Both the position numbers and the translations under genes were made by a program. From a virus (lineage: Duplodnaviria; Heunggongvirae; Uroviricota; Caudoviricetes), in the IMG/VR virus record IMGVR_UViG_2740892232_000003: a stretch of DNA of 11,223 bases; one strand, 5' to 3'. Positions 1-11,223 of this stretch are shown piece after piece; the stretch's first letter is position 1, and each line of letters starts with the position of its first letter. The notes under the pieces were generated by a model. The model saw only the letters and a program-made list of their open reading frames with translations, was not told the origin of the DNA and did not search any database.

Positions 1-2
1 AG

Positions 3-764
3 TATGGCGATAATCCGCTGGCGCTGAATAACGTCATGTCAGAGCAGAAAAAGACCTGGGCGGCTGAAGACCTGCTTCGCGGGAACTGGATGGCAGGCCT
101 CAGGTCCGGCTGGAGTGAGTGGGAAGAGAGTGCCACGGACAGTATGTCGCAGGTAAAAAGTGCTGCCACGCAGACCTTTGACGGTATTGCACAGAATATG
201 GCAGCGATGCTGACCGGCAGCGAACAGAACTGGCGTGGTTTCACCCGTTCTGTGCTGTCCATGCTGACAGAGATTTTTCTGAAGCAGGCGATGGTGGGGA
301 TAGTCGGGAGTATCGGCAGCGCCATTGGCGGTGCTTTCGGTGGTGGTGCGTCTGCCTCCACGGGGACGGCCATTCAGGCTGCGGCGGCGAACTTCCATTT
401 CGCGACCGGGGGATTTACGGGGACGGGGGGTAAATATGAACCTGCGGGGATTATTCATCGCGGGGAGTTTGTCTTCACGAAGGAGGCGACCAGCCGGATT
501 GGTGTCGGCAATCTGTACCGCCTGATGCGGGGCTATGCGGAAGGTGGTTATGTCGGCGGTGCCGGAAGTCCGGCGCAGATGCGGCGGGCGGAAGGCATTA
601 ATTTTAATCAGAACAATCACGTGGTGATTCAGAACGACGGCCCCAACGGGCGGGCAGGGCCGCAGCTGATGAAAGCGGTGTATGAGATGGCCCGCAAGGG
701 GGCACAGGATGAACTCCGGCTGCAGTTGCGTGATGGCGGTATGTTATCAGGGAGCGGTGGATGA
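3..764 (+). CDS. H: Tail tape-measure protein H, C-terminal part (5' end lies outside the window)
   Basis: The reading frame is open from the window edge to the TGA at 762-764. The translation (MSEQKKTWAAEDLLRGNWMAGL...GGFTGTGGKYEPAGI.HRGEFVFTKEATSRIGVGNLYRLMRGYA) closely matches the C-terminus of lambda gpH as I recall it. The stop overlaps the M start (ATGA at 761-764). Confidence 0.9.
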   Translation, partial: YGDNPLALNNVMSEQKKTWAAEDLLRGNWMAGLRSGWSEWEESATDSMSQVKSAATQTFDGIAQNMAAMLTGSEQNWRGFTRSVLSMLTEIFLKQAMVGIVGSIGSAIGGAFGGGASASTGTAIQAAAANFHFATGGFTGTGGKYEPAGIIHRGEFVFTKEATSRIGVGNLYRLMRGYAEGGYVGGAGSPAQMRRAEGINFNQNNHVVIQNDGPNGRAGPQLMKAVYEMARKGAQDELRLQLRDGGMLSGSGG

Positions 765-1090
765 AAACCTTTCGCTGGAAAGTGAAGCCGGATATGGAGG
801 TGAACTCGCAGCCATCGGTGCGTGAAGTGCGTTTTGGTGACGGGTACTCACAGCGTATGGCGGCAGGGCTGAATGCTGACCTGAAAACATACAGGGTGAC
901 GCTTTCCGTGACCCGGGAGGAGGCCCGGCATCTGGAAGCGTTCCTGGCAGAGCACGGTGGCTGGAAGGCATTTTTGTGGAAGCCACCCTATGCATACCGG
1001 CAGATAAAGGTGACCTGTGCCGGGTGGTCTGCGCGGGTCGGGATGTTGCGCGTTGAGTTCAGCGCGGAGTTTAAGCAGGTGGTGAACTGA
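761..1090 (+). CDS. M: Minor tail protein M
   Basis: A 109 aa ORF, the same length as lambda gpM, with an N-terminus (MKTFRWKVKPDMEVNSQPSVREVRFGDGYSQR) that matches lambda M from memory. It is translationally coupled to H upstream and to L downstream (TGATG at 1088-1092). Confidence 0.93.
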   Translation: MKTFRWKVKPDMEVNSQPSVREVRFGDGYSQRMAAGLNADLKTYRVTLSVTREEARHLEAFLAEHGGWKAFLWKPPYAYRQIKVTCAGWSARVGMLRVEFSAEFKQVVN

Positions 1091-1788
1091 TGCAGGATAT
1101 TCGCGAAGAAAGTCTAAACGAGTCGGTTAAGTCAGAGCAGTCACCGCGGGTGGTACTCTGGGAAATCGACCTGACGGTACAGGGTGGTGAGCGGTATTTT
1201 TTCTGTAATGAGCTGAATGAAAAAGGGGAGCCGGTCACCTGGCAGGGGCGTAAGTATGAGGCATACCCGATTGACGGCAGCGGCTTTGAGATGAACGGCC
1301 GGGGCAGCAGTGCCAGACCGTCGCTGACGGTGTCCAATCTGTTCGGTCTGGTCACCGGGATGGCGGAAGACCTGCAGAGTCTGGTGGGGGCCACGGTGGT
1401 CCGCCGCCGGGTGTATGCCCGTTTTCTGGATGCGGTGAATTTCGTTGCGGGCAATCCGGCGGCGGACCCGGAGCAGGAGCTGAGTGACCGCTGGGTGGTG
1501 GAGCAGATGTCGCAGCTGACAGCCATGACGGCCTCGTTTGTGCTGGCTACACCGACCGAGACGGACGGGGCGCTGTTTCCCGGTCGCATCATGCTGGCGA
1601 ACACCTGTATGTGGGATTACCGGGGAGATGAATGCGGGTATAACGGTCCTGCGGTGGCGGATGAGTTCGACAACCCCACCACGGATATCCGTAAGGACAG
1701 ATGCAGCAAGTGCATGCGCGGGTGTGAGATGCGCGGCATGGTGGCTAATTTTGGCGGTTTCCTTTCCATTAACAAACTTTCGCAGTAA
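1090..1788 (+). CDS. L: Minor tail protein L (tail tip complex)
   Basis: A 232 aa ORF, the same length as lambda gpL, in the conserved position after M. It has a cysteine-rich C-terminus (CMWDYRGDECGY...CSKCMRGCEMRG) consistent with the Fe-S-binding motif of gpL. Confidence 0.92.
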   Translation: MQDIREESLNESVKSEQSPRVVLWEIDLTVQGGERYFFCNELNEKGEPVTWQGRKYEAYPIDGSGFEMNGRGSSARPSLTVSNLFGLVTGMAEDLQSLVGATVVRRRVYARFLDAVNFVAGNPAADPEQELSDRWVVEQMSQLTAMTASFVLATPTETDGALFPGRIMLANTCMWDYRGDECGYNGPAVADEFDNPTTDIRKDRCSKCMRGCEMRGMVANFGGFLSINKLSQ

Positions 1789-1793
1789 ATCCA

Positions 1794-2537
1794 ATGACAC
1801 AGACAGAATCAGCGATTCTGGCGCATGCCCGGCGGTGTGTGCCTGCGGAGTCGTGCGGCTTAGTGGTGAGAACGCCGGAGGGGGAGCGGTATATCCCTTG
1901 TGTGAATATCTCTGCAGAGCCGGAGGCGTATTTTCGTATTGCACCGGAAGACTGGCTGCGGGCAGAGATGCAGGGGGAGATTGTGGCACTGGTCCACAGT
2001 CATCCCGGTGGGCTGCCCTGGCTGAGCGAGGCTGACCGGCGGCTGCAGATAAAAAGCGCACTGCCCTGGTGGCTGGTCTGCCGGGGTGACATTCACAAAT
2101 TCCGCTGTGTGCCACATCTGACGGGACGGCGCTTTGAGCACGGGGTGACGGACTGTTACACGCTGTTCCGGGATGCTTATCATCTGGCGGGGACTGAAAT
2201 GCCGGATTTTCATCGCGAGGATGACTGGTGGCGCAACGGCCAGAACCTGTACCTGGACAACCTGGCGGAAAACGGCTTTTGCCGGGTGTCTCCGTCCTCT
2301 GCACAGGCAGGCGATGTGCTGCTGTGCTGCTTTGGTGCTTCGGTGCCGAATCATGCCGCCGTTTACTGTGGTGACGGCGAGCTGCTGCACCATATTCCTG
2401 AACAACTGAGTAAACGGGAGAGGTATTCCGAAAAATGGCAACGACGAACGCATTCAGTCTGGCGTCACCGCCACTGGCACGCATCCGCCTTTACGGGGAT
2501 TTACAACGATTTGGCCGCCGCCTCAGCCTGTATGTGA
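1794..2537 (+). CDS. K: Tail tip assembly protein K (MPN/JAMM domain plus NlpC/P60 domain)
   Basis: A 247 aa ORF starting 5 nt after L. It has a JAMM-type metal-binding motif (HSHPGGLPWLSEAD, i.e. HxH-x7-S-x2-D) and, further on, an NlpC/P60-like Cys...His arrangement (DCYTLFRDAYH ... NHAAVYCGDGELLHHIP). Its 3' end overlaps I by about 103 nt in a different frame, as in the lambda K/I arrangement. Confidence 0.9.
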   Translation: MTQTESAILAHARRCVPAESCGLVVRTPEGERYIPCVNISAEPEAYFRIAPEDWLRAEMQGEIVALVHSHPGGLPWLSEADRRLQIKSALPWWLVCRGDIHKFRCVPHLTGRRFEHGVTDCYTLFRDAYHLAGTEMPDFHREDDWWRNGQNLYLDNLAENGFCRVSPSSAQAGDVLLCCFGASVPNHAAVYCGDGELLHHIPEQLSKRERYSEKWQRRTHSVWRHRHWHASAFTGIYNDLAAASACM

Positions 2538-3115
2538 ACACGGCAGCGGAAGCCATTCGCGCCCTGTCGATGCAGATGCCGGGCTTTCGCCGTCAGATGA
2601 ACGAAGGCTGGTACCAGATACGTATTGCCGGTGATGACACGGCACCGGAGGCGGTGTACGCCCGTCTTCACGAACAGCTGGGTGAGGGAACGGTCATCCA
2701 CATTGTGCCGCGACTGGCCGGGGCCGGAAAGGGTGGACTGCAGATTGTGCTGGGGGCGGCAGCCATCGTGGGCTCTTTCTTCACGGCCGGTGCCTCGATG
2801 GCGTTATGGGGTACAGCCCTGAGTGCCGGCGGTTTTTCTGCCACCACGATGCTGTTTTCACTGGGGGCCAGCATGATACTGGGCGGTGTGGCCCAGATGC
2901 TGGCCCCGAAGGCAAAAACACCGGATTACCGCGCAACGGATAACGGCAGACAGAACACGTACTTTTCCTCACTGGATAACATGATTGCCCAGGGGAACCC
3001 GATGCCGGTGCCTTACGGGGAAATGCTGGTTGGCTCCCGCCGTATATCCCAGGACATCAGCACCCGTGATGAAGGCGGGGGCGGAAAGGTCGTGGTTATC
3101 GGGCGGCAGGGGTAA
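2435..3115 (+). CDS. I: Tail assembly protein I
   Basis: A 226 aa ORF whose translation (MATTNAFSLASPPLARIRLYGDLQRFGRR...IHIVPR.AGA..GG.QIVLGAAAI.GSFFTAG...FSLGASM.LGGVAQMLAPKA.TP...TDNG.QNTYFSSLDNM.AQGN) matches lambda gpI from memory. The C-terminal half is Gly/Ala-rich and hydrophobic. Confidence 0.9.
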   Translation: MATTNAFSLASPPLARIRLYGDLQRFGRRLSLYVNTAAEAIRALSMQMPGFRRQMNEGWYQIRIAGDDTAPEAVYARLHEQLGEGTVIHIVPRLAGAGKGGLQIVLGAAAIVGSFFTAGASMALWGTALSAGGFSATTMLFSLGASMILGGVAQMLAPKAKTPDYRATDNGRQNTYFSSLDNMIAQGNPMPVPYGEMLVGSRRISQDISTRDEGGGGKVVVIGRQG

Positions 3116-3121
3116 AAAGAA

Positions 3122-3220
3122 TAAAAAAATCCCGCAGTGATCGCGGACAGGAACTGCGGGAGAGTTACGAAGATTAAGTGTAAGGAATTATTCTTATATC
3201 ACGACAAAAAAATTAACGCA
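3122..3220 (-). ncRNA. Candidate small non-coding RNA of about 95 nt, bounded by the promoter and terminator above (hypothetical)
   Basis: The interval between the predicted start (about 3218) and the terminator U-tract (about 3122) has no ATG-initiated ORF on the minus strand. This is an inference from promoter and terminator geometry only; there is no homology or expression evidence. Confidence 0.3.
3130..3161 (-). terminator. Intrinsic terminator hairpin oriented for the minus strand
   Basis: Arms at 3130-3138 (tcccgcagt) and 3153-3161 (aactgcggga) form a 9 bp stem around a 14 nt loop. On the + strand an A-run (aaaaaaa at 3123-3129, with more A upstream) precedes it, so the minus-strand RNA ends stem + AUUUUUUUAUUCUUUUU. 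There is no T-run after the stem on the + strand. Confidence 0.55.
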
Positions 3221-3225
3221 GAGAA

Positions 3226-3253
3226 ATTATACGCGCCACAGTCAGTTTGTGAA
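3226..3253 (-). promoter_or_regulatory. Candidate sigma70 promoter on the minus strand (-35 TTCACA, 16 bp spacer, -10 TATAAT)
   Basis: On the minus strand, TTCACA (complement of 3248-3253) is followed by a 16 nt spacer and a perfect TATAAT (complement of 3226-3231). It sits in a roughly 38% GC island between the GC-rich I and J genes. Its predicted start near 3218 points leftward toward the terminator at 3130-3161. Confidence 0.45.
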
Positions 3254-3325
3254 AATGTGAAGATATTCAGAATTTTTATGCCATTACCGGTTTTAACCAA
3301 CAGGATTATCGGTGGGCATGAAAGA

Positions 3326-3364
3326 AAACCCCGGTATCTGCTGATACCGGGGTTTCTCTTTAGC
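3326..3364. terminator. Strong GC-rich hairpin with U-rich flanks on both strands (bidirectional terminator-like)
   Basis: A perfect 13 bp stem (3326-3338 aaaccccggtatc paired with 3343-3355 gataccggggttt) encloses a 4 nt loop (tgct). The + strand continues CTCTTT and the minus strand continues UCUUUCAU. Confidence 0.6.
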
Positions 3365-3458
3365 ATGGCAGAAATGTGTTTCATGCTTTTCGGGCGAAGG
3401 ATATCCGACTTCTGTACGGAATGGCAAGTGGCGGTTAATTTATTCAGGGGAAGGCTGT

Positions 3459-6400
3459 ATGGGAAAAGGTGGCGGTAAGGCACACACGCCTCGTGAGGCG
3501 AAGGATAATCTCAAATCCACGCAGATGATGAGTGTGATTGATGCGATTGGTGAGGGACCGATAGAAGGTCCGGTGAAGGGACTGCAGAGTATTCTGGTGA
3601 ACAAAACCCCGCTGACGGACACGGACGGTAATCCCGTGATACACGGTGTGACTGCGGTCTGGCGTGCCGGGGAGCAGGAGCAGACACCACCGGAAGGCTT
3701 TGAGTCCTCCGGAGCTGAAACCGGACTGGGCGTGGAAGTGACGAAGGCAAAACCGGTGACGCGCACCATTACGTCCGCGAACATTGACCGCCTGCGGGTT
3801 ACCTTCGGGGTGCAGTCACTGGTGCAGACCACGTCAAAGGGCGACCGTAATCCTTCCTCTGTCCGGATTCTGATTCAGTTACAGCGTAATGGCCGCTGGG
3901 TGACGGAAAAGGATGTCACCATTAACGGCAAGACCACCTCGCAGTTCCTGGCCTCGGTGATTCTGGATAATCTGCCTCCCCGGCCCTTTAACATCCGGAT
4001 GGTCAGGGAGACGGCGGACAGCACCACGGACCAGCTGCAGAATAAGACGCTGTGGTCGTCATACACCGAAATCATCGATGTGAAACAGTGCTACCCGAAC
4101 ACGGCCATTGTGGGGCTGCAGGTGGATGCGGAGCAGTTCGGCGGCCAGCAGATGACGGTGAACTACCATATCCGCGGTCGCATCATCCAGGTGCCGTCAA
4201 ACTATGACCCGGAAAAACGCACGTACAGTGGTATCTGGGACGGCAGCCTGAAACCGGCATACAGCAACAACCCGGCCTGGTGTCTGTGGGACATGCTGAC
4301 TCACCCGCGCTACGGCATGGGAAAACGTCTGGGGGCGGCGGATGTGGACAAGTGGGCGCTGTATGCCATCGGGCAGTACTGCGACCAGACGGTCCCGGAT
4401 GGTTTCGGGGGGACCGAGCCGCGGATGACCTTTAATGCGTACCTGGCACAACAGCGTAAGGCGTGGGACGTTCTCAGTGATTTCTGCTCTGCGATGCGCT
4501 GTATGCCGGTATGGAACGGCCAGACGCTGACGTTCGTTCAGGACCGTCCGTCGGATGTGGTGTGGCCGTACACCAACAGCGATGTGGTGGTGGATGATAA
4601 CGGCGTGGGTTTCCGCTACAGCTTCAGTGCCCTGAAGGACCGGCACACGGCAGTGGAGGTGAATTACACCGACCCGCAGAACGGCTGGCAGACCTCCACG
4701 GAACTGGTGGAAGACCCGGAAGCCATACTGCGCTACGGACGCAACCTGCTGAAGATGGACGCGTTCGGCTGTACCAGCCGCGGTCAGGCCCACCGTGCCG
4801 GGCTGTGGGTGATAAAGACCGAACTGCTGGAAACGCAGACGGTGGATTTCACGCTCGGGTCACAGGGGCTGCGTCACACACCCGGTGACATCATTGAAAT
4901 CTGTGATAACGACTATGCCGGGACCATGACCGGCGGACGTGTCCTGTCCATCGATGCCGCCAGCCGTACCCTGACGCTGGACCGGGAGGTGACACTGCCG
5001 GAGACCGGCACGGCCACTGTTAATCTGATTAACGGCAGCGGTAAGCCGGCGAGCGTGGCCATCACCGCACACCCCGCGCCTGACCGGATACAGGTCAGCA
5101 CCCTGCCGGATGGTGTGGAGACATACGGTGTGTGGGGACTCTCCCTGCCGTCACTGCGTCGTCGCCTGTTCTGCTGTGTCTCCATCCGGGAAAACACGGA
5201 CGGCACGTTCGCCATCACGGCGGTGCAGCACGTACCGGAAAAAGAAGCCATTGTGGATAACGGGGCCAGCTTTGAGCCGCAGTCAGGCAGCCTGAACAGC
5301 GTTATCCCACCGGCAGTGCAGCACCTGACGGTGGAGGTGAGTGCAGCTGACGGTCAGTATCTGGCACAGGCGAAATGGGACACGCCGCGGGTGGTGAAGG
5401 GTGTGCGCTTCAGTCTGCGTCTGACCAGCGGAAGCGGAGAAGACAGCCGTCTGGTGAGCACCGCCATCACCGCAGACACGGAGCACCGTTTCAGCGGCCT
5501 GCCACTGGGGGAATACACCCTGACGGTCAGGGCGATTAACAGTTATGGTCAGCAGGGCGAACCGGCCACCACCACGTTCAGGATTAACGCGCCTGCAAAA
5601 CCCGCCACCATTGAGCTGACGCCGGGGTATTTTCAGATAACGGCGGTACCGGTGCTGGCGGTGTATGACCCGACGGTGCAGTTTGAGTTCTGGTTTTCGG
5701 AAAAACGCATCACGAACACGGCACAGGTGGAAAAATCTGCCCGTTATCTGGGGACCGGCAGTCAGTGGACTGTCCAGGGCGATCGGATTAAGCCGGGGAT
5801 GGATTTCTGGTTTTATGTGCGCAGTGTCAACCTGGTGGGCAAGTCTGCATTTGTGGAAGCCAGCGGGCAGGCCAGCAATGATGCAAAAGGGTATCTGGAA
5901 TTTTTCCGTGGTCTGATAGATGAGACGCTGCTGGGGCAGGCACTGAAAAAGCGCATTGATGCGTCAGCCCTGCGATCGGATGTCACTCAACTGGAAGAGA
6001 ATATCGGACAACTGGAAGAAGACATCCGTCAGCGGATGGACACGGATATTGCGGAAGTGACCCGGAAAATCGGGGAGGCGGAAAACAGCCTCACGCAGCT
6101 GGTTGCGAAAAAGAATGAGGATCAGACGCTGGCCATCGCGCAGGTGAGTCAGAAAGTGGACCGTGTCAGCAGTGAAATCTCACAGACGGTCAGTCAGAGC
6201 AGTGAGGAAAATACCCGACAGATAGCACAGGTCCGCCAGTACGTGGACAAAAAGCAAAGTGAAATCAAGCAGACAGTCAGCCAGGGCCAGTCAGAAAACG
6301 CCCGGCAGATAGCACAGGTCCGTCAGTACGTGGATGAAAAAGGGAGTGAAATTGCCTCGACCACGGATAAAAAACTGGGTGACCAGGCCGTGACCATACA

Positions 6401-7259
6401 GCAAATCCAGCGGGTTCAGTCAGACACGCGCGATAATCTGAATGCCATGTATATGCTGAAGGTGCAGAAAACGAAGAAGGGTATTCCGTATGTGGCCGGG
6501 ATTGGCGCGGGGATCGAGGATGTCGATGGTCAGACGCTGAGTAACATTCTGCTGCAGGCCGATCGCATTGCGATGATTACTCCGGAGAACGGTAACACCA
6601 CGCCGTTATTTGTGGCGCAGGGGAATCAGCTGTTCATGAACGACGTGTTCCTGAAGCGACTGTTTGCGGTGAGCATCACGTCATCCGGCAATCCTCCGAC
6701 GTTTTCCCTGACGCCGGATGGCAGGCTGACAGCCCGCAATGCGGATATCAGTGGAGCCATCACGGCGAATACCGGCACGCTCAATAATGTCACCATTAAC
6801 GAGAACTGTGTCATCAGAGGGAAACTGTCTGCAAACCAGATTGAAGGCGATCTCGTTAAAACAGTGGGTAAGGCTTTCCCCCGTGACTCCCGTGCACCGG
6901 AGCGTTGGCCATCAGGAACCATTACCGTCAGGGTTTATGACGATCAGCCGTTTAACCGGCAGATTGTTATTCCGGCGGTGGCTTTCAGCGGTGCCAGACA
7001 TGAGCGGGAGAACAGCGATACTTATTCGTCATGCCGCCTGATAGTGAAGAAAAACGGTGCTGAAATTTATAACCGTACCGCGATGGATAATACGCTGGTT
7101 TACAGTGGTGTTATTGATATGCCTGCTGGTCGCGGCCACATGACGCTGGAGTTTTCTGTATCAGCATGGTGGGTAAATGGCTGGTATCCCACAGCAAGTA
7201 TCAGCGATTTGCTGGTTGTTGTGATGAAGAAAGCCACTGCAGGCATCACGATTAGCTGA
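3459..7259 (+). CDS. J: Tail tip host-specificity protein J (central tail fibre), expanded variant of 1266 aa
   Basis: The N-terminus ([39 protein letters not shown]...) and long internal stretches ([22 protein letters not shown]; [30 protein letters not shown]; [24 protein letters not shown]; LETQTVDF; [31 protein letters not shown]; [11 protein letters not shown]...[16 protein letters not shown]; [17 protein letters not shown]) match lambda gpJ from memory. A GGGGAAGG Shine-Dalgarno sequence precedes the ATG. Confidence 0.95.
6183..6356 (+). repeat. In-frame tandem repeat inside J: two 87 bp (29 codon) units within a coiled-coil-like insertion
   Basis: Unit A (6183-6269) and unit B (6270-6356) align at about 75% identity and share the core cagatagcacaggtccg.cagtacgtgga. 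They encode [30 protein letters not shown] and [29 protein letters not shown]. Confidence 0.85.
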
Positions 7260-7277
7260 ATTTTATAACCCCAATAC

Positions 7278-7303
7278 GGGCGCCAGAAATGGCGCCTTTT
7301 TTA
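7278..7303 (+). terminator. Rho-independent terminator after J
   Basis: A 6 bp stem (gggcgcc at 7278-7284 and ggcgcc at 7291-7296, a GGCGCC palindrome) with loop agaaat is followed by TTTTTTATT. Confidence 0.7.
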
Positions 7304-7326
7304 TTGCAGAAAAGCGAGAGGTAATT

Positions 7327-7926
7327 ATGCGTAAATTATGTGCTGTTATTCTGTCCGCAGTAGTCTGGCTGGTTGCCGCTGGTACGCCAGCGAGCGCAGC
7401 AGAGCATCAGTCCACACTAAGCGCCGGGTATCTTCAGACCCACACTGATATGCCAGGAAGCGATAATCTGAACGGGATTAACGTGAAATACCGTTATGAA
7501 TTTACGGACACGCTGGGGCTGATTACGTCTTTCAGTTATGCCGACGCAGAAGATGAACAAAAAACGCATTACAGCGATACCCGCTGGCATGAAGATTCCG
7601 TGCGTAACTGCTGGTTCAGCGTAATGGCGGGGCCGTCTGTGCGCGTGAATGAATGGTTCAGCGCGTATGCGATGGCGGGTGTGGCTTACAGCCGTGTGTC
7701 GACTTTCTCCGGGGATTATCTCCGCGTAACTGACAACAAGGGGAAAACGCACGACGTGCTGACCGGAAGTGATGACGGTCGCCACAGCAATACCTCTCTG
7801 GCGTGGGGGGCTGGCGTGCAGTTTAACCCGACCGAATCCGTGACCATTGACCTTGCTTATGAAGGTTCCGGTAGTGGCGACTGGCGAACGGATGCATTTA
7901 TTGTTGGTATCGGATACCGTTTCTGA
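7327..7926 (+). CDS. lom: Lom outer-membrane protein (Ail/Lom/OmpX/PagC family beta-barrel), complete
   Basis: A 199 aa ORF with a signal peptide (MRKLCAVILSAVVWLVAAGTPASA|AE) and the family C-terminus (INVKYRYEFTD...SAYAMAGVA.SR...AWGAGVQFNP...IDLAYEGSGSGDWRTD.FIVG.GYRF), which is nearly identical to the lambda Lom C-terminus from memory. It has its own Shine-Dalgarno sequence (GAGAGG) and is flanked by terminators on both sides. Confidence 0.93.
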   Translation: MRKLCAVILSAVVWLVAAGTPASAAEHQSTLSAGYLQTHTDMPGSDNLNGINVKYRYEFTDTLGLITSFSYADAEDEQKTHYSDTRWHEDSVRNCWFSVMAGPSVRVNEWFSAYAMAGVAYSRVSTFSGDYLRVTDNKGKTHDVLTGSDDGRHSNTSLAWGAGVQFNPTESVTIDLAYEGSGSGDWRTDAFIVGIGYRF

Positions 7927-8029
7927 CAACAGACGCCGATTTATCTTCTGTAAATATTGTTATGATACGCAGGTTCATCCGCCTTATGGGGTGAACTGCG
8001 TTTGAGGAAACGTAAAGTTACACTGTCCT

Positions 8030-8064
8030 GAAGCCCGTGGCGTCACTGCTGCGGGCTTTTTTTA
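8030..8064 (+). terminator. Rho-independent terminator after lom
   Basis: A stem (agcccg at 8032-8037 paired with cgggct at 8052-8057) with a 14 nt loop is followed by a T7 run (8057-8063). Confidence 0.6.
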
Positions 8065-8077
8065 TTGGTGGAAAAGT

Positions 8078-8249
8078 ATGACAGTAAAAATTTCTGGCGT
8101 GCTTAAAGATGGCACAGGAAAACCAGTACAGAACTGCACCATTGTGCTGAAGGCCAGACGGACCAGCAGCACGGTGGTGGTGAACACGGTGGCCTCTGAA
8201 AATCCGGATGAAGCCGGGCGTTACAGCATGGATGTTGAGTATGGCCAGT
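8078..8249 (+). CDS. stf: Side tail fibre protein, N-terminal 57 codons; truncated by the N-run at 8250
   Basis: The translation (MTVKISGVLKDGTGKPVQNCTIVLKARRTSSTVVVNTVASENPDEAGRYSMDVEYGQ) matches the lambda Stf N-terminus (MAVKISGVLKDGTGKPVQNCTIQLKA...) from memory. A GGTGGA Shine-Dalgarno sequence precedes the ATG. Confidence 0.85.
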
Positions 8250-8259
8250 NNNNNNNNNN
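8250..8259. other. Run of 10 N (probable scaffold spacer, not biological sequence)
   Basis: Exactly 10 N. The flanks belong to different genes: an stf N-terminus on the left and the interior of a lom copy on the right. Confidence 0.95.
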
Positions 8260-8761
8260 CGGGTATCTTCAGACCCATACTGATATGCCAGGCAGTGATG
8301 ACCTGAAGGGCATTAACGTGAAATACCGTTATGAATTTACGGACACGCTGGGGCTGGTGACGTCATTCAGTTATGCAGGATACAAGAATCGTCAGCTGAC
8401 CCGTTACAGCGATACCCGCTGGCATAAAGATTCCGTGCGTAACCGCTGGTCCAGCGTGATGGCGGGGCCGTCTGTGCGCGTGAATGAATGGTTCAGCGCG
8501 TATGCGATGGCGGGTATGGCTTACAGCCGTGTTTCGACTTTTTCCGGGGATTACCTCCGCGTAACTGACAACAAGGGGAAAACGCACGATGTGCTGACCG
8601 GAAGTGATGACGGTCGCCACAGCAACACGTCTCTGGCGTGGGGGGCTGGCGTGCAGTTTAACCCGACCGAATCCGTGGCCATTGATATTGCTTATGAAGG
8701 TTCTGGCAGTGGTGACTGGCGCACTGACGGTTTCATCGTGGGTGTCGGTTATAAGTTCTGA
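8260..8761 (+). CDS. lom: Second lom copy (Ail/Lom family), 5'-truncated by the gap
   Basis: The translation (GYLQTHTDMPGSDDLKGINVKYRYEFTDTLGLVTSF...AYEGSGSGDWRTDGFIVGVGYKF, stop at 8759-8761) is about 90% identical to the lom at 7327-7926. It is a distinct allele (for example YAGYKNRQLTRYSD versus YADAEDEQKTHYSD). Confidence 0.88.
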
Positions 8762-8785
8762 TTAGCCAGGTAACACAGTGTTATG

Positions 8786-8795
8786 NNNNNNNNNN
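8786..8795. other. Run of 10 N (probable scaffold spacer)
   Basis: Exactly 10 N, with unrelated sequence on either side. Confidence 0.95.
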
Positions 8796-9095
8796 TTGGT
8801 TTTAGTTTCGCTGCTTAACTTACCGTTACTGACTACACATGTGGACCGTTCGGACTTTACCCGCATACCAATAAGCATTTTTTCCAGCCCGGCATTTTCA
8901 TTTATTCGTCGGTTTGAACCACCTATATCACAATACGGAAAACCGTCGTACCCACCTGATGAACCAAACCCCATTACGATCCCCGCATCTGCCTGATGCC
9001 GGTATGTGTCAAAAACACGCGGTGCTGCATTTGGCGTTTTATACCAGTTCTTATGTACCTCACAAAGAACCGTAAAAGGAAGATTATAAAGATTA

Positions 9096-9105
9096 NNNNN
9101 NNNNN
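9096..9105. other. Run of 10 N (probable scaffold spacer)
   Basis: Exactly 10 N. Confidence 0.95.
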
Positions 9106-9112
9106 AGTGGAT

Positions 9113-9399
9113 ATGGCAGCAGTAAAAATCTCAGGTGTGCTGAAAGATGGTGCGGGAAAACCAATACAGAACTGCACTATTCAACTGAAGGCAAAGCGTA
9201 ACAGCACCACGGTACTGGTGAACACGGTGGCCTCTGAAAATCCGGATGAAGCCGGGCGTTACAGCATGGATGTTGAGTATGGCCAGTACAGCGTCACCCT
9301 GCTGGTTGAAGGTTTTCCGCCTTCACATGCCGGGACCATTACCGTCTATGAAGGTTCCAGACCAGGTACGCTGAATGATTTTCTCGGTGCCATGACGGA
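9113..9399 (+). CDS. stf: Side tail fibre protein, N-terminal 95 codons; a third allele, truncated by gaps on both sides
   Basis: The translation (MAAVKISGVLKDGAGKPIQNCTIQLKAKRNSTTVLVNTVASENPDEAGRYSMDVEYGQYSVTLLVEGFPPSHAGTITVYEGSRPGTLNDFLGAMT) is the Stf N-terminus again, distinct from the copies at 8078 (+) and 11144 (-). Confidence 0.85.
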
Positions 9400-9409
9400 N
9401 NNNNNNNNN
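9400..9409. other. Run of 10 N (probable scaffold spacer)
   Basis: Exactly 10 N. Confidence 0.95.
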
Positions 9410-10610
9410 CCGCGTTACCGGTGCCGTCCCCGTAACAATAAAAGATGATGCGCCTGTACCAGCCTCAATCTGTGGAGTGGTTACATCGAGATAATCCCCT
9501 GATGCAACCATCTGCCCTGTATCCGGAGAATACTGGACAAAACCACCAACCGTATTTTCTGTTGTATCTGCTTTTAATGTAGCCTCAAAAAATATCCAGC
9601 CAGTTGCATCATCCTTAACAGACCTTGCTGTAACACGGCTTGTCTGACCTGTCTTGCTAATTATGCGGGTGGTAAGGTTCAGGTTTGCTGCTCCTATTGA
9701 TGTCCTTACCTCCCCATCATAATGTTCAAATAAAATACGAACGGCGATATTATCAACTTCACTTTTTACCCGACAGGATATAGTTACATGCTTTTCGTCC
9801 CCTGAAGTATCAACCCCTCCGGTACTCGAATACAGTCCGATAATGGTATGCGCTTTACTTGTACCAACAATCGAATCCTGTACGACAAACCGGCCATAAT
9901 TAAACCCGAAACTATCTGTGCCTGTTTCTGTAACGTCCAGTGAAGTTGACTTATTCCACTTCGAAGGGTCTGTACTGTTCGGGAAGAAGTTCGTTCTTTG
10001 CCCCTCAATAAGCAGGCCATCACACTCAAATCGTGGCTCATTAATTTCCGCCGTTTTCAGTTCGCCAGATTTGTTGATATATGTTGCCGTTGATGCGCGA
10101 CTGAAATTAACCTGTTTATCACTGGCAACCTGAACCACATTATCACCAATCTTCACTTTTTTATAACCCGGAGAATAGCCCGTAATCATATCCAGCGAAT
10201 CATTAAAGGGTATCCACACATCCGGCAGCGGCTGTAAAACATATCTGTACGGCTCTGCTGTCTGGTTTGCGTATTCTCTGGCAGCATCTTCACTTGCTTT
10301 TGCTGCCGTCTGGCTTGCTGCCGATGCTTTCGCCGAGTTCGCCGCCGCTGTTTCGCTCACCTTTGCGTTGGCTTCACTGTCTTTGGCATTCGTCTCACTG
10401 GTTTTCGCTGCCGTCTGGCTGGATTTTGCGTTTTTTTCGCTGGCCTTTGTGGCTGTCTCGCTATTTTTCGCGCTGGTTTCTGATTTTTTGGCTGCTGTCG
10501 CGGAGTTTGCCGATGCAGTCTGCGAGGCCGCTGCCGCCTGTGCGCTGTTAGCTGCATTCGTTTCTGAGGTTTTCGCTGCATTCTTCGATGAGGCTGCTGC
10601 CGTTTCGGAT
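9410..10610 (-). CDS. stf: Side tail fibre protein, internal segment (Ala/Ser/Thr-rich repeat region plus a central domain); both ends run into gaps
   Basis: An open minus-strand frame spans the whole segment. It reads SETAAASSKNAAKTSETNAANSAQ...AKASEDAAREYANQTAEPYRYVLQPLPDVWIPFNDS...TGTAPVTR. The low-complexity Ala-rich repeats are typical of Stf-type fibre shafts, and the first 137 nt overlap the segment that carries the stf start (see repeat 10474-10758). Confidence 0.8.
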
Positions 10611-10758
10611 NNNNNNNNNNTTGGTTTCTGATTTTTTGGCTGCTGTCGCGGAGTTTGCCGATGCAGTCTGCGAGGCCGCTGCCGCTTGTGCGCTGTTAGC
10701 TGCATTCGTTTCTGAGGTTTTCGCTGCATTCTTCGATGAGGCTGCTGCCGTTTCGGAT
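10474..10758. repeat. 137 bp direct repeat flanking the N-run at 10611-10620 (10474-10610 versus 10622-10758, one mismatch)
   Basis: The two copies are identical except for gccgcctgtgcg versus gccgcttgtgcg. The offset of 148 nt preserves the stf reading frame (148 mod 3 = 1, matching the frame classes on the two sides). Confidence 0.85.
10611..10620. other. Run of 10 N (probable scaffold spacer between overlapping contig ends)
   Basis: Exactly 10 N, flanked by the 137 bp near-identical direct repeat. Confidence 0.95.
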
Positions 10759-11144
10759 TTCTTTGCCGCCGCTGCACTCTGTGATGACGCTCCGGCATGA
10801 CGTGCCACTTCATTCACCATCAGCTCAAAACGGCGCAGTGCCTCCGGACGGGCATCATCCTCCGTCATGGCACCGAGAAAATCATTCAGCGTACCGGGTT
10901 GAGAATCTTCATACACGGTGATGGTCCCGGCATGTGACGGCGGGAATCCTTCCACCAACAGAATAACGCTGTACTGACCGTACTCAACGTCCATGCTGTA
11001 ACGCCCGGCTTCATCCGGATTTTCTGAGGCCAGCGTGTTCACCACCACCGTGGTGCTGTTACGTTTTGCTTTCAGCTGGATTGTGCAGTTCTGTACCGGT
11101 TTTCCTGTGCCGTCTTTCAGTACACCTGAAATCTTTACTGCCAT
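10621..11144 (-). CDS. stf: Side tail fibre protein, N-terminal part (ATG at complement of 11142-11144); 3' end runs into the gap
   Basis: The translation is MAVKISGVLKDGTGKPVQNCTIQLKAKRNSTTVVVNTLASENPDEAGRYSMDVEYGQYSVILLVEGFPPSHAGTITVYEDSQPGTLNDFLGAMTEDDARPEALRRFELMVNEVARHAGA... This is the closest of the three copies to the lambda Stf N-terminus as I recall it. The ORF track lists an alternative start two codons upstream (MNM...). Confidence 0.88.
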
Positions 11145-11154
11145 ATTCACCCCA

Positions 11155-11182
11155 CAAAAAAGCCCGCCTGAACCGGCGGGCT
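11155..11182 (-). terminator. Rho-independent terminator between lom and stf (minus strand)
   Basis: The minus-strand sequence is agcccgcc-ggttca-ggcgggct followed by TTTTTTG: an 8 bp GC-rich stem (11161-11168 with 11175-11182), a 6 nt loop and a T-run. Confidence 0.7.
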
Positions 11183-11208
11183 GTCATAACACTGTGTTAC
11201 CTGGCTAA

Positions 11209-11223
11209 TCAGAACTTATAACC
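11209..11223 (-). CDS. lom: Last four codons and stop of a lom copy on the minus strand (runs off the window edge)
   Basis: The reverse complement of 11209-11223 is ggttataagttctga, encoding G-Y-K-F-stop. This is identical to the 3' end of the lom copy at 8749-8761. Confidence 0.5.
   Translation of the reverse strand, partial: GYKF

Follow-up and report, generated by a model that had tools for sequence, protein, structure and literature searches.

A chain of short contigs from related E. coli prophage tail-fibre regions, very probably ordered by assembly, follows an intact lambdoid tail module

The window analysed here, the whole 11,223-nt stretch of DNA, joins an intact 8.2-kb contig (S0) to five fragments (S1–S5, 294–1201 bp) lying within 8250–11223, and the layout of this latter part is very probably an ordinary artefact of assembly and scaffolding, not a real gene arrangement. 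Judged by their matches to sequenced genomes, the fragments very probably stem from the tail-fibre regions of three or more related E. coli prophages, designated A, B and C below, so that the E. coli genome or sample behind the record very probably contains no fewer than three lambdoid tail modules, each with the layout J-lom-terminator-stf. The initial annotation had described the region as a chain of repeat contigs whose order and orientation could not be trusted, a description that a closed genome with the same order would contradict. When 5426 closed E. coli genomes were searched with positions 7000–11223, no place reached at least 80% coverage, and the best places joined only S2, S4 and S5. 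The description therefore stands, and a closed chromosome with the same prophage reveals a different and coherent order.

Layout of the window

Contig S0 (1–8249, plus strand) carries the tail module of prophage A, as assigned from Pfam profiles, identity to assembly L246 and three others, and a terminator scan. It opens with the 3′ end of the tape-measure gene H (1–764), followed by M (761–1090), L (1090–1788), K (1794–2537), I (from about 2435 or 2534 to 3115), J (3459–7259) and a lom gene matching the Ail/Lom family (7327–7926), then a terminator-like hairpin (8030–8059) and the first 57 codons of an stf gene (8078–8249, ATG at 8078) inside which the contig ends, all genes being read from the plus strand. 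The domain order tape measure-M-L-K-I-J-Ail/Lom-stf, with phage_tail_N present, is that of a lambdoid tail module; the S0 stf start is identified through its homology with the stf sequences of S3 and S5 and through the RefSeq annotation of matching loci. All Pfam matches in the window exceed the curated cut-offs, and an Rfam scan of the whole window returned zero matches. Over its 8249 bp S0 is 100.000% identical in the four assemblies L243, L245, L246 (OZ040441.1) and L250, of which OZ040441.1 is a complete chromosome.

A base scan located five runs of exactly 10 N (8250–8259, 8786–8795, 9096–9105, 9400–9409 and 10611–10620) in an otherwise N-free window, as the initial annotation had reported. 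It had also called the junctions incoherent, which the profile coordinates bear out: at the first gap the stf start of prophage A runs into the interior of a prophage C lom gene, and at the fourth the 5′ part of an stf gene on the plus strand meets an stf body on the minus strand. The first junction is a false join, since the bases that follow an identical S0 in other genomes resemble the tail of S3 and not S1, and the fourth is false as well. The second falsely joins a lom 3′ end (plus) to the C-terminal part of stf (minus), and the third is also false, S2 being followed in closed genomes by 32 bp and then S4, not S3. The fifth run separates contigs S4 and S5, which truly overlap by 137 nt. 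Gene calling across the runs creates chimeric open reading frames at 8078–8761 (stf start plus lom interior) and 9323–10813.

The window contains stf starts of three different kinds and two lom genes. Fragment S1 (8260–8785, plus) is a lom gene of the C-type prophage, covering positions 34–199 of the 199-position Ail/Lom Pfam profile and ending with the stop codon (8759–8761) and 24 nt of downstream sequence; it is 89% identical to the S0 lom and 100% identical to KK19-02 (L251 12001–12526). Fragment S2 (8796–9095, minus) is distal stf, ends 145 nt short of the stf stop in the closed reference, and matches L246 16239–16538 at 100% in reverse orientation. The stf start of prophage C lies in S3 (9106–9399, plus; ATG at 9113; phage_tail_N 2–94), whose head (9106–9215) is specific to C and whose tail (9216–9399) is common with the prophage A stf, the stretch 9288–9399 differing from L246 14792–14903 by a single mismatch. 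An stf body makes up S4 (9410–10610, minus), which is 99.8–100% identical to 15006–16206 of L246 and L244 in reverse orientation and 99.9% identical to AR_0017, and which probably represents a copy common to, or collapsed from, more than one prophage. The left part of S5 (10621–10860, minus) is an stf segment that overlaps S4 and matches L246 14904–15143 without mismatch. Its right part (10861–11223, minus), 99.8% identical in EC28 and five other closed genomes, holds a B-type stf start, the third in the window, with its ATG at 11144, a terminator-like hairpin detected by the terminator scan (11182–11161, minus) and, at the window end, the 3′-terminal 15 nt of a lom gene (11209–11223, minus).

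Repeats connect these fragments. The last 137 nt of S4 (10474–10610) recur on the same strand at the start of S5 (10622–10758) with one mismatch (99.3%), and the base pair 10473/10621 flanking the overlap also differs. At the paired sites 10538/10686 and 10473/10621, S4 carries a G..G haplotype and S5 an A..A haplotype. Tandem Repeats Finder detected in the Ala/Ser/Lys/Glu-rich stf region no tandem array able alone to explain the break between S4 and S5. Another repeat is inverted, and here the initial annotation was right about its existence but one base off in its extent: the 38-bp intervals 8748–8785 and 11186–11223 that it gave are not reverse complements, while 8747–8785 and 11185–11223 match over 39 bp, at which point the match is cut off by the window end.

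Gene order in closed genomes

Adjacency in the source genome is taken here from identical or near-identical loci elsewhere. No match to a junction-spanning pattern or to a rare 129-nt word of S1 turned up in viral, genome and metagenome contig collections, and the phage collection likewise lacks the source record. In assemblies with an identical J protein, the same-strand sequence downstream of S0 consists of 214 bp, the reverse complement (rc) of S4, 32 bp and rc S2, giving the gene order J, lom, a single 687-aa stf, two small open reading frames and the host trp operon. This is the same prophage as S0, in a closed chromosome, and its locus can be recovered from the fragments of the window: S0, 9288–9399, rc 10621–10860, rc 9410–10472, the 32-bp bridge GCAAGCGATATGGTTACAGTTCCGATTAAGAA and rc 8796–9095 can be retiled into a sequence that differs from OZ040441.1 (L246 6543–16538) by one mismatch in 9996 bp. 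Joined as rc S5, rc S4, bridge and rc S2, the minus-strand fragments can be translated without interruption into 639 aa that match phage_tail_N positions 1–131, and S2, S4 and S5 are colinear and co-oriented as in actual stf genes.

The plus-strand fragments reassemble elsewhere. Tiled as S1, ACAGCCCGCCGGTTCAGGCGGGCTTTTTTGTGG (a 33-bp hairpin) and S3, they match KK19-02 at 853 of 853 positions (100%), in a different prophage that adjoins sitABCD/ompN. The adjacency of S1 and S3 is present also in the ungapped L219, L195, L131, L235 and L202, and S3 is found at 100% in L219 and KK19-02, 33 bp downstream of S1. The partial orders S2-S4-S5 and S1-S3 are thus genuine. A further prophage accounts for S5, which in EC28 (99.8%) belongs to a locus with a different distal stf. 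In closed genomes the counterparts of the three stf starts lie in prophages at separate locations, close to trp, to sitABCD/ompN and to ompT respectively.

It had been suggested from the sequence that S1 and the reverse complement of S5 represent the same locus, or near-identical loci, of the form lom, terminator, stf. The form is correct, but the pairing is not, the partner of S1 being S3 (100%, KK19-02). With EC28 as proxy, identity between the S1 and S5 loci is confined to the 72 nt at the right end of S1 and the 33-nt terminator hairpin, and the S1 lom is about 91% identical overall to the S5-type lom of EC28. Since S1 ends 72 nt past the last difference from the latter, the two are distinct paralogous loci. 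A single locus composed of S1, rc S5, rc S4, bridge and rc S2 was also considered; in closed genomes it aligns as one uninterrupted block (100% of its length), with 287 of them attaining at least 80% coverage, but despite this fitting architecture the identity is only 96%, and it is superseded by the pairing of S1 with S3 (100%) and by the assembly of S0, S3 tail, rc S5 left part, rc S4 and rc S2 (one mismatch).

Among RefSeq closed genomes the top identities are 99.5% for S0, 100% for S1 with S3 (KK19-02) and 99.8% for S5 (EC28 and others), and the hit lists do not overlap at the top, so that no one genome of this set emerged as carrying the three modules together at about 100%. Closed genomes hold a median of 2–4 and up to 26 such J-lom-stf places, and the region is therefore repetitive within single genomes.

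Contig ends and a proposed assembly mechanism

The positions at which the fragments stop offer further insight into their origin. Of ten contig ends within the window, eight fit repeat boundaries. The right ends of S0, S1 and S4 each lie exactly 72 nt past the last copy-specific base: the final 72 nt of S0 recur exactly within S3 (9216–9287); S1 ends 72 nt after 8713, its last difference from the EC28-type lom, as had been predicted before the test; and S4 ends at the polymorphic site 10538 plus 72. For S2 the right end is 9023 plus 72, position 9023 being polymorphic in relatives, and S3 ends at a fork, prophage C departing from A at the first base past 9399. The left ends of S2, S3 and S5 begin exactly on a copy-specific base, which for S2 (8796) is the final position at which the stf of prophage A and the EC28-type copy disagree. 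The left ends of S1 (8260) and S4 (9410) do not follow the rule with the available proxies.

In Velvet, the node label consists of the last nucleotide of each k-mer (PMC3488206, the MetaVelvet paper). The pattern of ends suggests a de Bruijn assembler with k = 73 and node labels of this style. Fragments S3 and S5 cross points where strict unitigs should break, and such an assembler must also have resolved some repeats. As for the uniform gaps, the Velvet manual has gaps shorter than 10 written as 10 N, and under the NCBI rule at least 10 N count as a gap; a literature search for a 10-N convention of assemblers or scaffolders found no usable statement.

The following mechanism may account for these features. 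The lom 3′ ends, terminators and stf genes of the modules would be mosaics of identical and divergent stretches, which a short-read assembler of this type would cut wherever copies converge or diverge. A scaffolder may then have linked the fragments by read pairs through shared, collapsed stretches, setting a minimal 10-N placeholder at each join, even across the 137-nt overlap. In the window as it stands, a plus-strand chain from S1 to S3 (prophage C) is interleaved with a minus-strand chain from S2 through S4 to S5, and both are attached to S0 of prophage A.

Alternative explanations

An artefact of another kind would result if small unplaced contigs had been concatenated, or ordered along a reference, with a fixed 10-N spacer to give a pseudomolecule, whose order would then lack linkage information. 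This appears unlikely. All five spacers are equally long, whether the contigs in fact share 137 nt or have a true distance of 32–33 bp, and a fixed spacer is typical of simple joining; however, every fragment is lom or stf, and the successions S2-S4-S5 and S1-S3 are right in both order and strand, which would hardly be expected of an arbitrary list. Placement along a reference would moreover have given S3 the orientation of S4 and S5, and ends of the k−1 type are those of raw graph nodes, as expected within an assembler's own scaffolds. It is also rather improbable that the sample was mixed or metagenomic and that the paralogous fragments represent different E. coli strains (two or more) in it, and not several prophages of one genome. 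The metagenome scaffold L244 does contain S0 at 99.988% together with the G..G haplotype of S4, while isolates with S0 at 100% carry the A..A haplotype of the S5 left end, so that the haplotypes could be strain variants of one prophage. Yet the presence of several J-lom-stf places is routine in single closed genomes, as the counts above illustrate, and with the three stf starts matching three differently located prophages, one genome is sufficient.

The arrangement itself might be real, for instance in a rearranged or degraded prophage whose tail-to-tail fragments are parted by 10-N runs hiding a few bases. Prophages do rearrange, truncated stf, lom and tfa genes occur in lambdoid remnants, and EC28 has pseudogene fragments downstream of stf. 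This reading is nevertheless very unlikely in view of the closed-genome search, in which no place in the 5426 genomes reached 80%. At none of the junctions are the flanks contiguous in close relatives, S4 and S5 overlap by 137 nt across a gap, and the pieces tile an intact locus with one mismatch in 9996 bp. The k−1 rule of the ends lacks biological meaning, and homologous recombination between stf copies would be expected to yield intact hybrids, not gene starts placed head to head. That each run masks 10 real bases can be rejected, as the true relation of the flanking sequences is none at the first four gaps and −137 bp between S4 and S5; the true spacings are 32 bp between S2 and S4 once S3 is removed and 33 bp between S1 and S3 once S2 is removed. 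It is likewise very unlikely that a structural variant of the source strain set prophage A (plus) and the S5-type prophage (minus) head to head. Such a variant might be an illegitimate junction or inversion between two lambdoid prophages with a breakpoint in the shared stf body, perhaps in part of the population, which the assembler would have rendered as a tangle rather than invented. Least probable, to the point of being negligible, is the capture of a flipped state of an invertible segment bearing the stf body, similar to Mu G, P1 C or e14 P with their invertases Gin, Cin and Pin. Tail-fibre genes with invertible segments are a familiar feature of E. coli phages, and the stf body and C-terminus (S4, S2) indeed lie on the strand opposite to the S0 stf start. 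However, the 'inverted' block starts near codon 130, far upstream of Gin-type cut sites, and is in direct orientation in eight of eight assemblies of the identical prophage. A crossover core of the AAACCnnGGTTT type is absent from 7200–11223, the only two matches with one mismatch being the arms of the I-J hairpin (3326–3355), and the only inverted repeats are the paralogous stf starts and the 39-mer. An invertase-type Pfam family is likewise absent from the window and from the genes listed within 10 kb downstream of J in the eight assemblies. With neither crossover sites nor an invertase-type gene found, the invertible segment was rejected.

Implications and relation to known systems

The relevance of an assembly artefact in 8250–11223 is one of quality control only. 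Gene callers yield chimeric proteins across the N runs, and in prophage or tail-fibre (host-range) typing of this region lom and stf alleles would be both miscounted and wrongly paired. The k−1 rule allows such chains to be recognized without reads and unseen paralogues to be predicted; specifically, a minus-strand lom gene is predicted just past 11223 that agrees with rc S1 for exactly 72 nt (corresponding to 8714–8785) and departs from it at the base corresponding to 8713.

Among known systems, the closest likeness is to the mis-scaffolds of short-read de Bruijn assemblers of the Velvet type, with which the window shares fixed minimal N runs, ends that are copy-specific or displaced by k−1 = 72, a gap between overlapping contigs, and pieces that tile real loci when reordered. 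It differs from Velvet-type node chains in that assembler and k are deduced here from the pattern, the left ends of S1 and S4 do not fit, and S3 and S5 cross branch points. With the Mu G, P1 C and e14 P segments the likeness is limited to a part of a tail-fibre gene lying on the strand opposite to its 5′ end, whereas the inverted block here is bounded by N runs and k−1 ends. Contig S0, in turn, shares order and Pfam families with the lambda-like H-M-L-K-I-J-lom-stf modules of VT1-Sakai, CP-1639 and the OZ040441.1 prophage near trp, including the succession of lom, terminator and an stf with phage_tail_N, an order that is annotated alike in VT1-Sakai, CP-1639 and RefSeq prophages. From this lambdoid layout only the scaffolded right third deviates, very probably artificially, and the biology is otherwise ordinary.

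Segments and gene content

Five runs of exactly 10 N, starting at 8250, 8786, 9096, 9400 and 10611, hold every N of the window and divide it into segments S0 (1–8249), S1 (8260–8785), S2 (8796–9095), S3 (9106–9399), S4 (9410–10610) and S5 (10621–11223). Pfam profiles identify S0 as a lambdoid tail module comprising the tape-measure C-terminus, M, L, K, I, J and Ail/Lom. S0 stops 57 codons into a gene, starting at 8078, which, judging by homology to S3 and S5 and by RefSeq annotation of matching loci, is the side tail fibre gene stf. S1 opens at position 34 of 199 of the Ail/Lom profile, S3 holds the start of an stf on the plus strand (positions 2–94 of phage_tail_N), and S2, S4 and S5 carry minus-strand stf parts; ORF calls spanning the N runs produce chimeric frames.

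Within S0, a 343-bp AT-rich spacer (3116–3458) separates I from J, carries a strong terminator-like hairpin (3326–3358) and as a whole folds far better than shuffled controls (z = −4.8). Assemblies of the identical prophage have it too, as does the closed E. coli genome AR_0017; in EC28, another closed genome, I and J lie only ~60 bp apart. A 113-aa ORF without a Pfam family is annotated there in one relative (L250), and the spacer could be what is left of a moron, or a small element that was inserted. Inside J, 6171–6342 is an in-frame tandem duplication of 87 bp (29 aa; two copies, 82% matches).

Segment order and prophage A

Among 5426 closed E. coli genomes, none covers at least 80% of 7000–11223 at one place, and the pieces retile into real loci, supporting the initial annotation in its reading of the right third as a chain of fragments in untrustworthy order. 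This distrust holds overall, but the partial orders S2–S4–S5 and S1–S3 are genuine. The best places in closed genomes link S2, S4 and S5 only, on one strand and within 2 kb; in AR_0017, 32 bp lie between S2 and S4, with S5 overlapping the latter, and the window thus places S3 inside what is there one gene.

An exact-protein look-up with the window's J retrieved eight assemblies. Four of these carry the full 8249 bp of S0 at 100.000% identity, and one of the four, OZ040441.1, is a complete chromosome. At these loci (prophage A), J and lom precede one stf that encodes 687 aa on the plus strand; two small genes come next, then the trp operon of the host. Along the same strand, S0 is followed by 214 bp, the reverse complement of S4, 32 bp and the reverse complement of S2. 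The 214 bp consist of the S3 tail (9288–9399, one mismatch) and the reverse complement of 10759–10860 from S5 (no mismatch). Retiling S0, 9288–9399 of S3, reverse-complemented 10621–10860 of S5 and 9410–10472 of S4, a 32-bp bridge taken from the reference itself, and reverse-complemented S2 leaves 1 mismatch in 9996 bp against the closed chromosome. Cargo genes lie in the identical prophage (L243–L250) ~3.5–4.5 kb downstream of J, between the tail-fibre genes and the trp operon, and include a minus-strand CxxCxxCC-domain protein (PF03692) and a protein matching PF05526 (R_equi_Vir), a family name unexpected for an E. coli prophage.

Repeats and paralogous modules

The inverted repeat noted initially exists, though one base off the coordinates given: it matches exactly over 39 bp (8747–8785 against 11185–11223) and is cut off by the window end. 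The last 137 nt of S4 reappear on the same strand at the start of S5 with one mismatch, the pair flanking this overlap (10473/10621) differing too, and the last 72 nt of S0 are found again, exactly, within S3. In the Ala/Ser/Lys-rich region of stf, two sites 65 nt apart (10538/10473 and 10686/10621) form a G..G or A..A haplotype; both occur in the window, and the haplotype differs between assemblies (metagenome scaffold L244, OZ040441.1 locus L246) of a prophage otherwise 99.99–100% identical.

S1 and the reverse complement of S5 had been proposed as the same or near-identical lom-stf loci, a pairing that fails, the partner of S1 being S3. Ungapped contigs (L219 and others) carry S1 and S3 on one strand with 33 bp between them, a terminator hairpin identical to the reverse complement of 11152–11184, and the closed genome KK19-02 matches S1, hairpin and S3 at 100% over 853 bp; the prophage there is a different one, which adjoins sitABCD/ompN and carries another stf body. 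The closed genomes that match S5 at 99.8% identity are EC28 and five more. At the EC28 locus, S5 forms the head of yet another prophage, with a different distal stf and a lom that shares only 91% identity with S1. Identity between this EC28 proxy and the S1 locus is confined to the 33-nt hairpin plus the final 72 nt of S1, and we infer that the lom at the right edge of the window is a distinct paralogue of that in S1. Since S0, S1/S3 and S5 are placed in separate prophages, at least three paralogous modules of the form lom-terminator-stf are represented in the window: S0 comes from A, S1 and the head of S3 from C, and the right part of S5 from B.

In its 5' region stf is mosaic, one S4/S2 body carrying S0-type starts in L064/L037 and S3-type starts in L146/L148/L166; places of this kind number a median of 2–4 per closed genome, and up to 26. 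The phage_tail_N variant joined to this body (99.5–100%) changes from prophage to prophage (the same five relatives and L242), and in EC28 the S5-type start leads into another distal body. The window's own 5' variants lie at 8078–8249, 9113–9399 and 10861–11144, and exchange points fall at short identical stretches.

Contig ends and their proposed origin

Contig ends sit on copy boundaries in a regular, asymmetric manner. On the right, S0 ends 72 nt past 8177, its last difference from S3, S4 72 nt past SNP 10538, and S2 72 nt past 9023, polymorphic in relatives; for S1 the end was predicted beforehand, the last difference from S5-type lom (EC28) being 8713, exactly 72 nt before 8785. S3 ends at the last base common to C-type and A-type copies, i.e., at the fork. 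On the left, S3 begins at the first base differing from the S5-type copy beyond the shared hairpin, S5 at an allele-specific base, and S2 at the last position where prophage A departs from the EC28-type copy, >220 nt beyond it being identical. S1-left (8260) and S4-left (9410) matched no copy boundary in the window or the proxies used: S1 begins 18 nt ahead of the first A/C difference in lom, and relatives show no variation at 9410. These two ends may point to another paralogue, not seen so far, or to breaks related to coverage.

In the description of Velvet, each k-mer contributes its last nucleotide to the node label (PMC3488206). Such a de Bruijn node would be expected to span from the first copy-specific base to the last plus k−1, and the 72-nt rule thus implies k = 73. 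Bubble branches and short shared nodes would have fallen under 200 nt and been discarded, a loss that would explain why the 32-bp and 33-bp stretches are missing and why the 9319-A allele is absent. The runs of 10 N are consistent with a placeholder for a minimal gap, which we take to be the convention of the Velvet manual and NCBI; no citable source for it was found in the literature. Masking of 10 real bases per run was rejected, as the observed spacings are wrong.

Alternative explanations

Plain concatenation with a fixed spacer is an unlikely alternative, and it leaves the correct partial orders unexplained. It is likewise unlikely that the fragments come from a mixed sample instead of from several prophages of a single genome. 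A mixture would agree with the occurrence of both G..G and A..A among copies of prophage A that are otherwise nearly identical, yet one genome is enough. That the arrangement is real, a rearranged prophage region, is very improbable, being contradicted at every junction, by the 137-nt overlap lying across a gap and by the k−1 rule of the ends. Least credible, to the point of being negligible, is a Gin/Cin/Pin-type invertible segment: crossover cores were not found in or near stf, none of the genes listed near the identical prophage is of invertase type, and orientation is direct in all eight assemblies. With high confidence, the right third of the window is an assembly artefact of an ordinary kind, affecting lambdoid tail genes that are well known.
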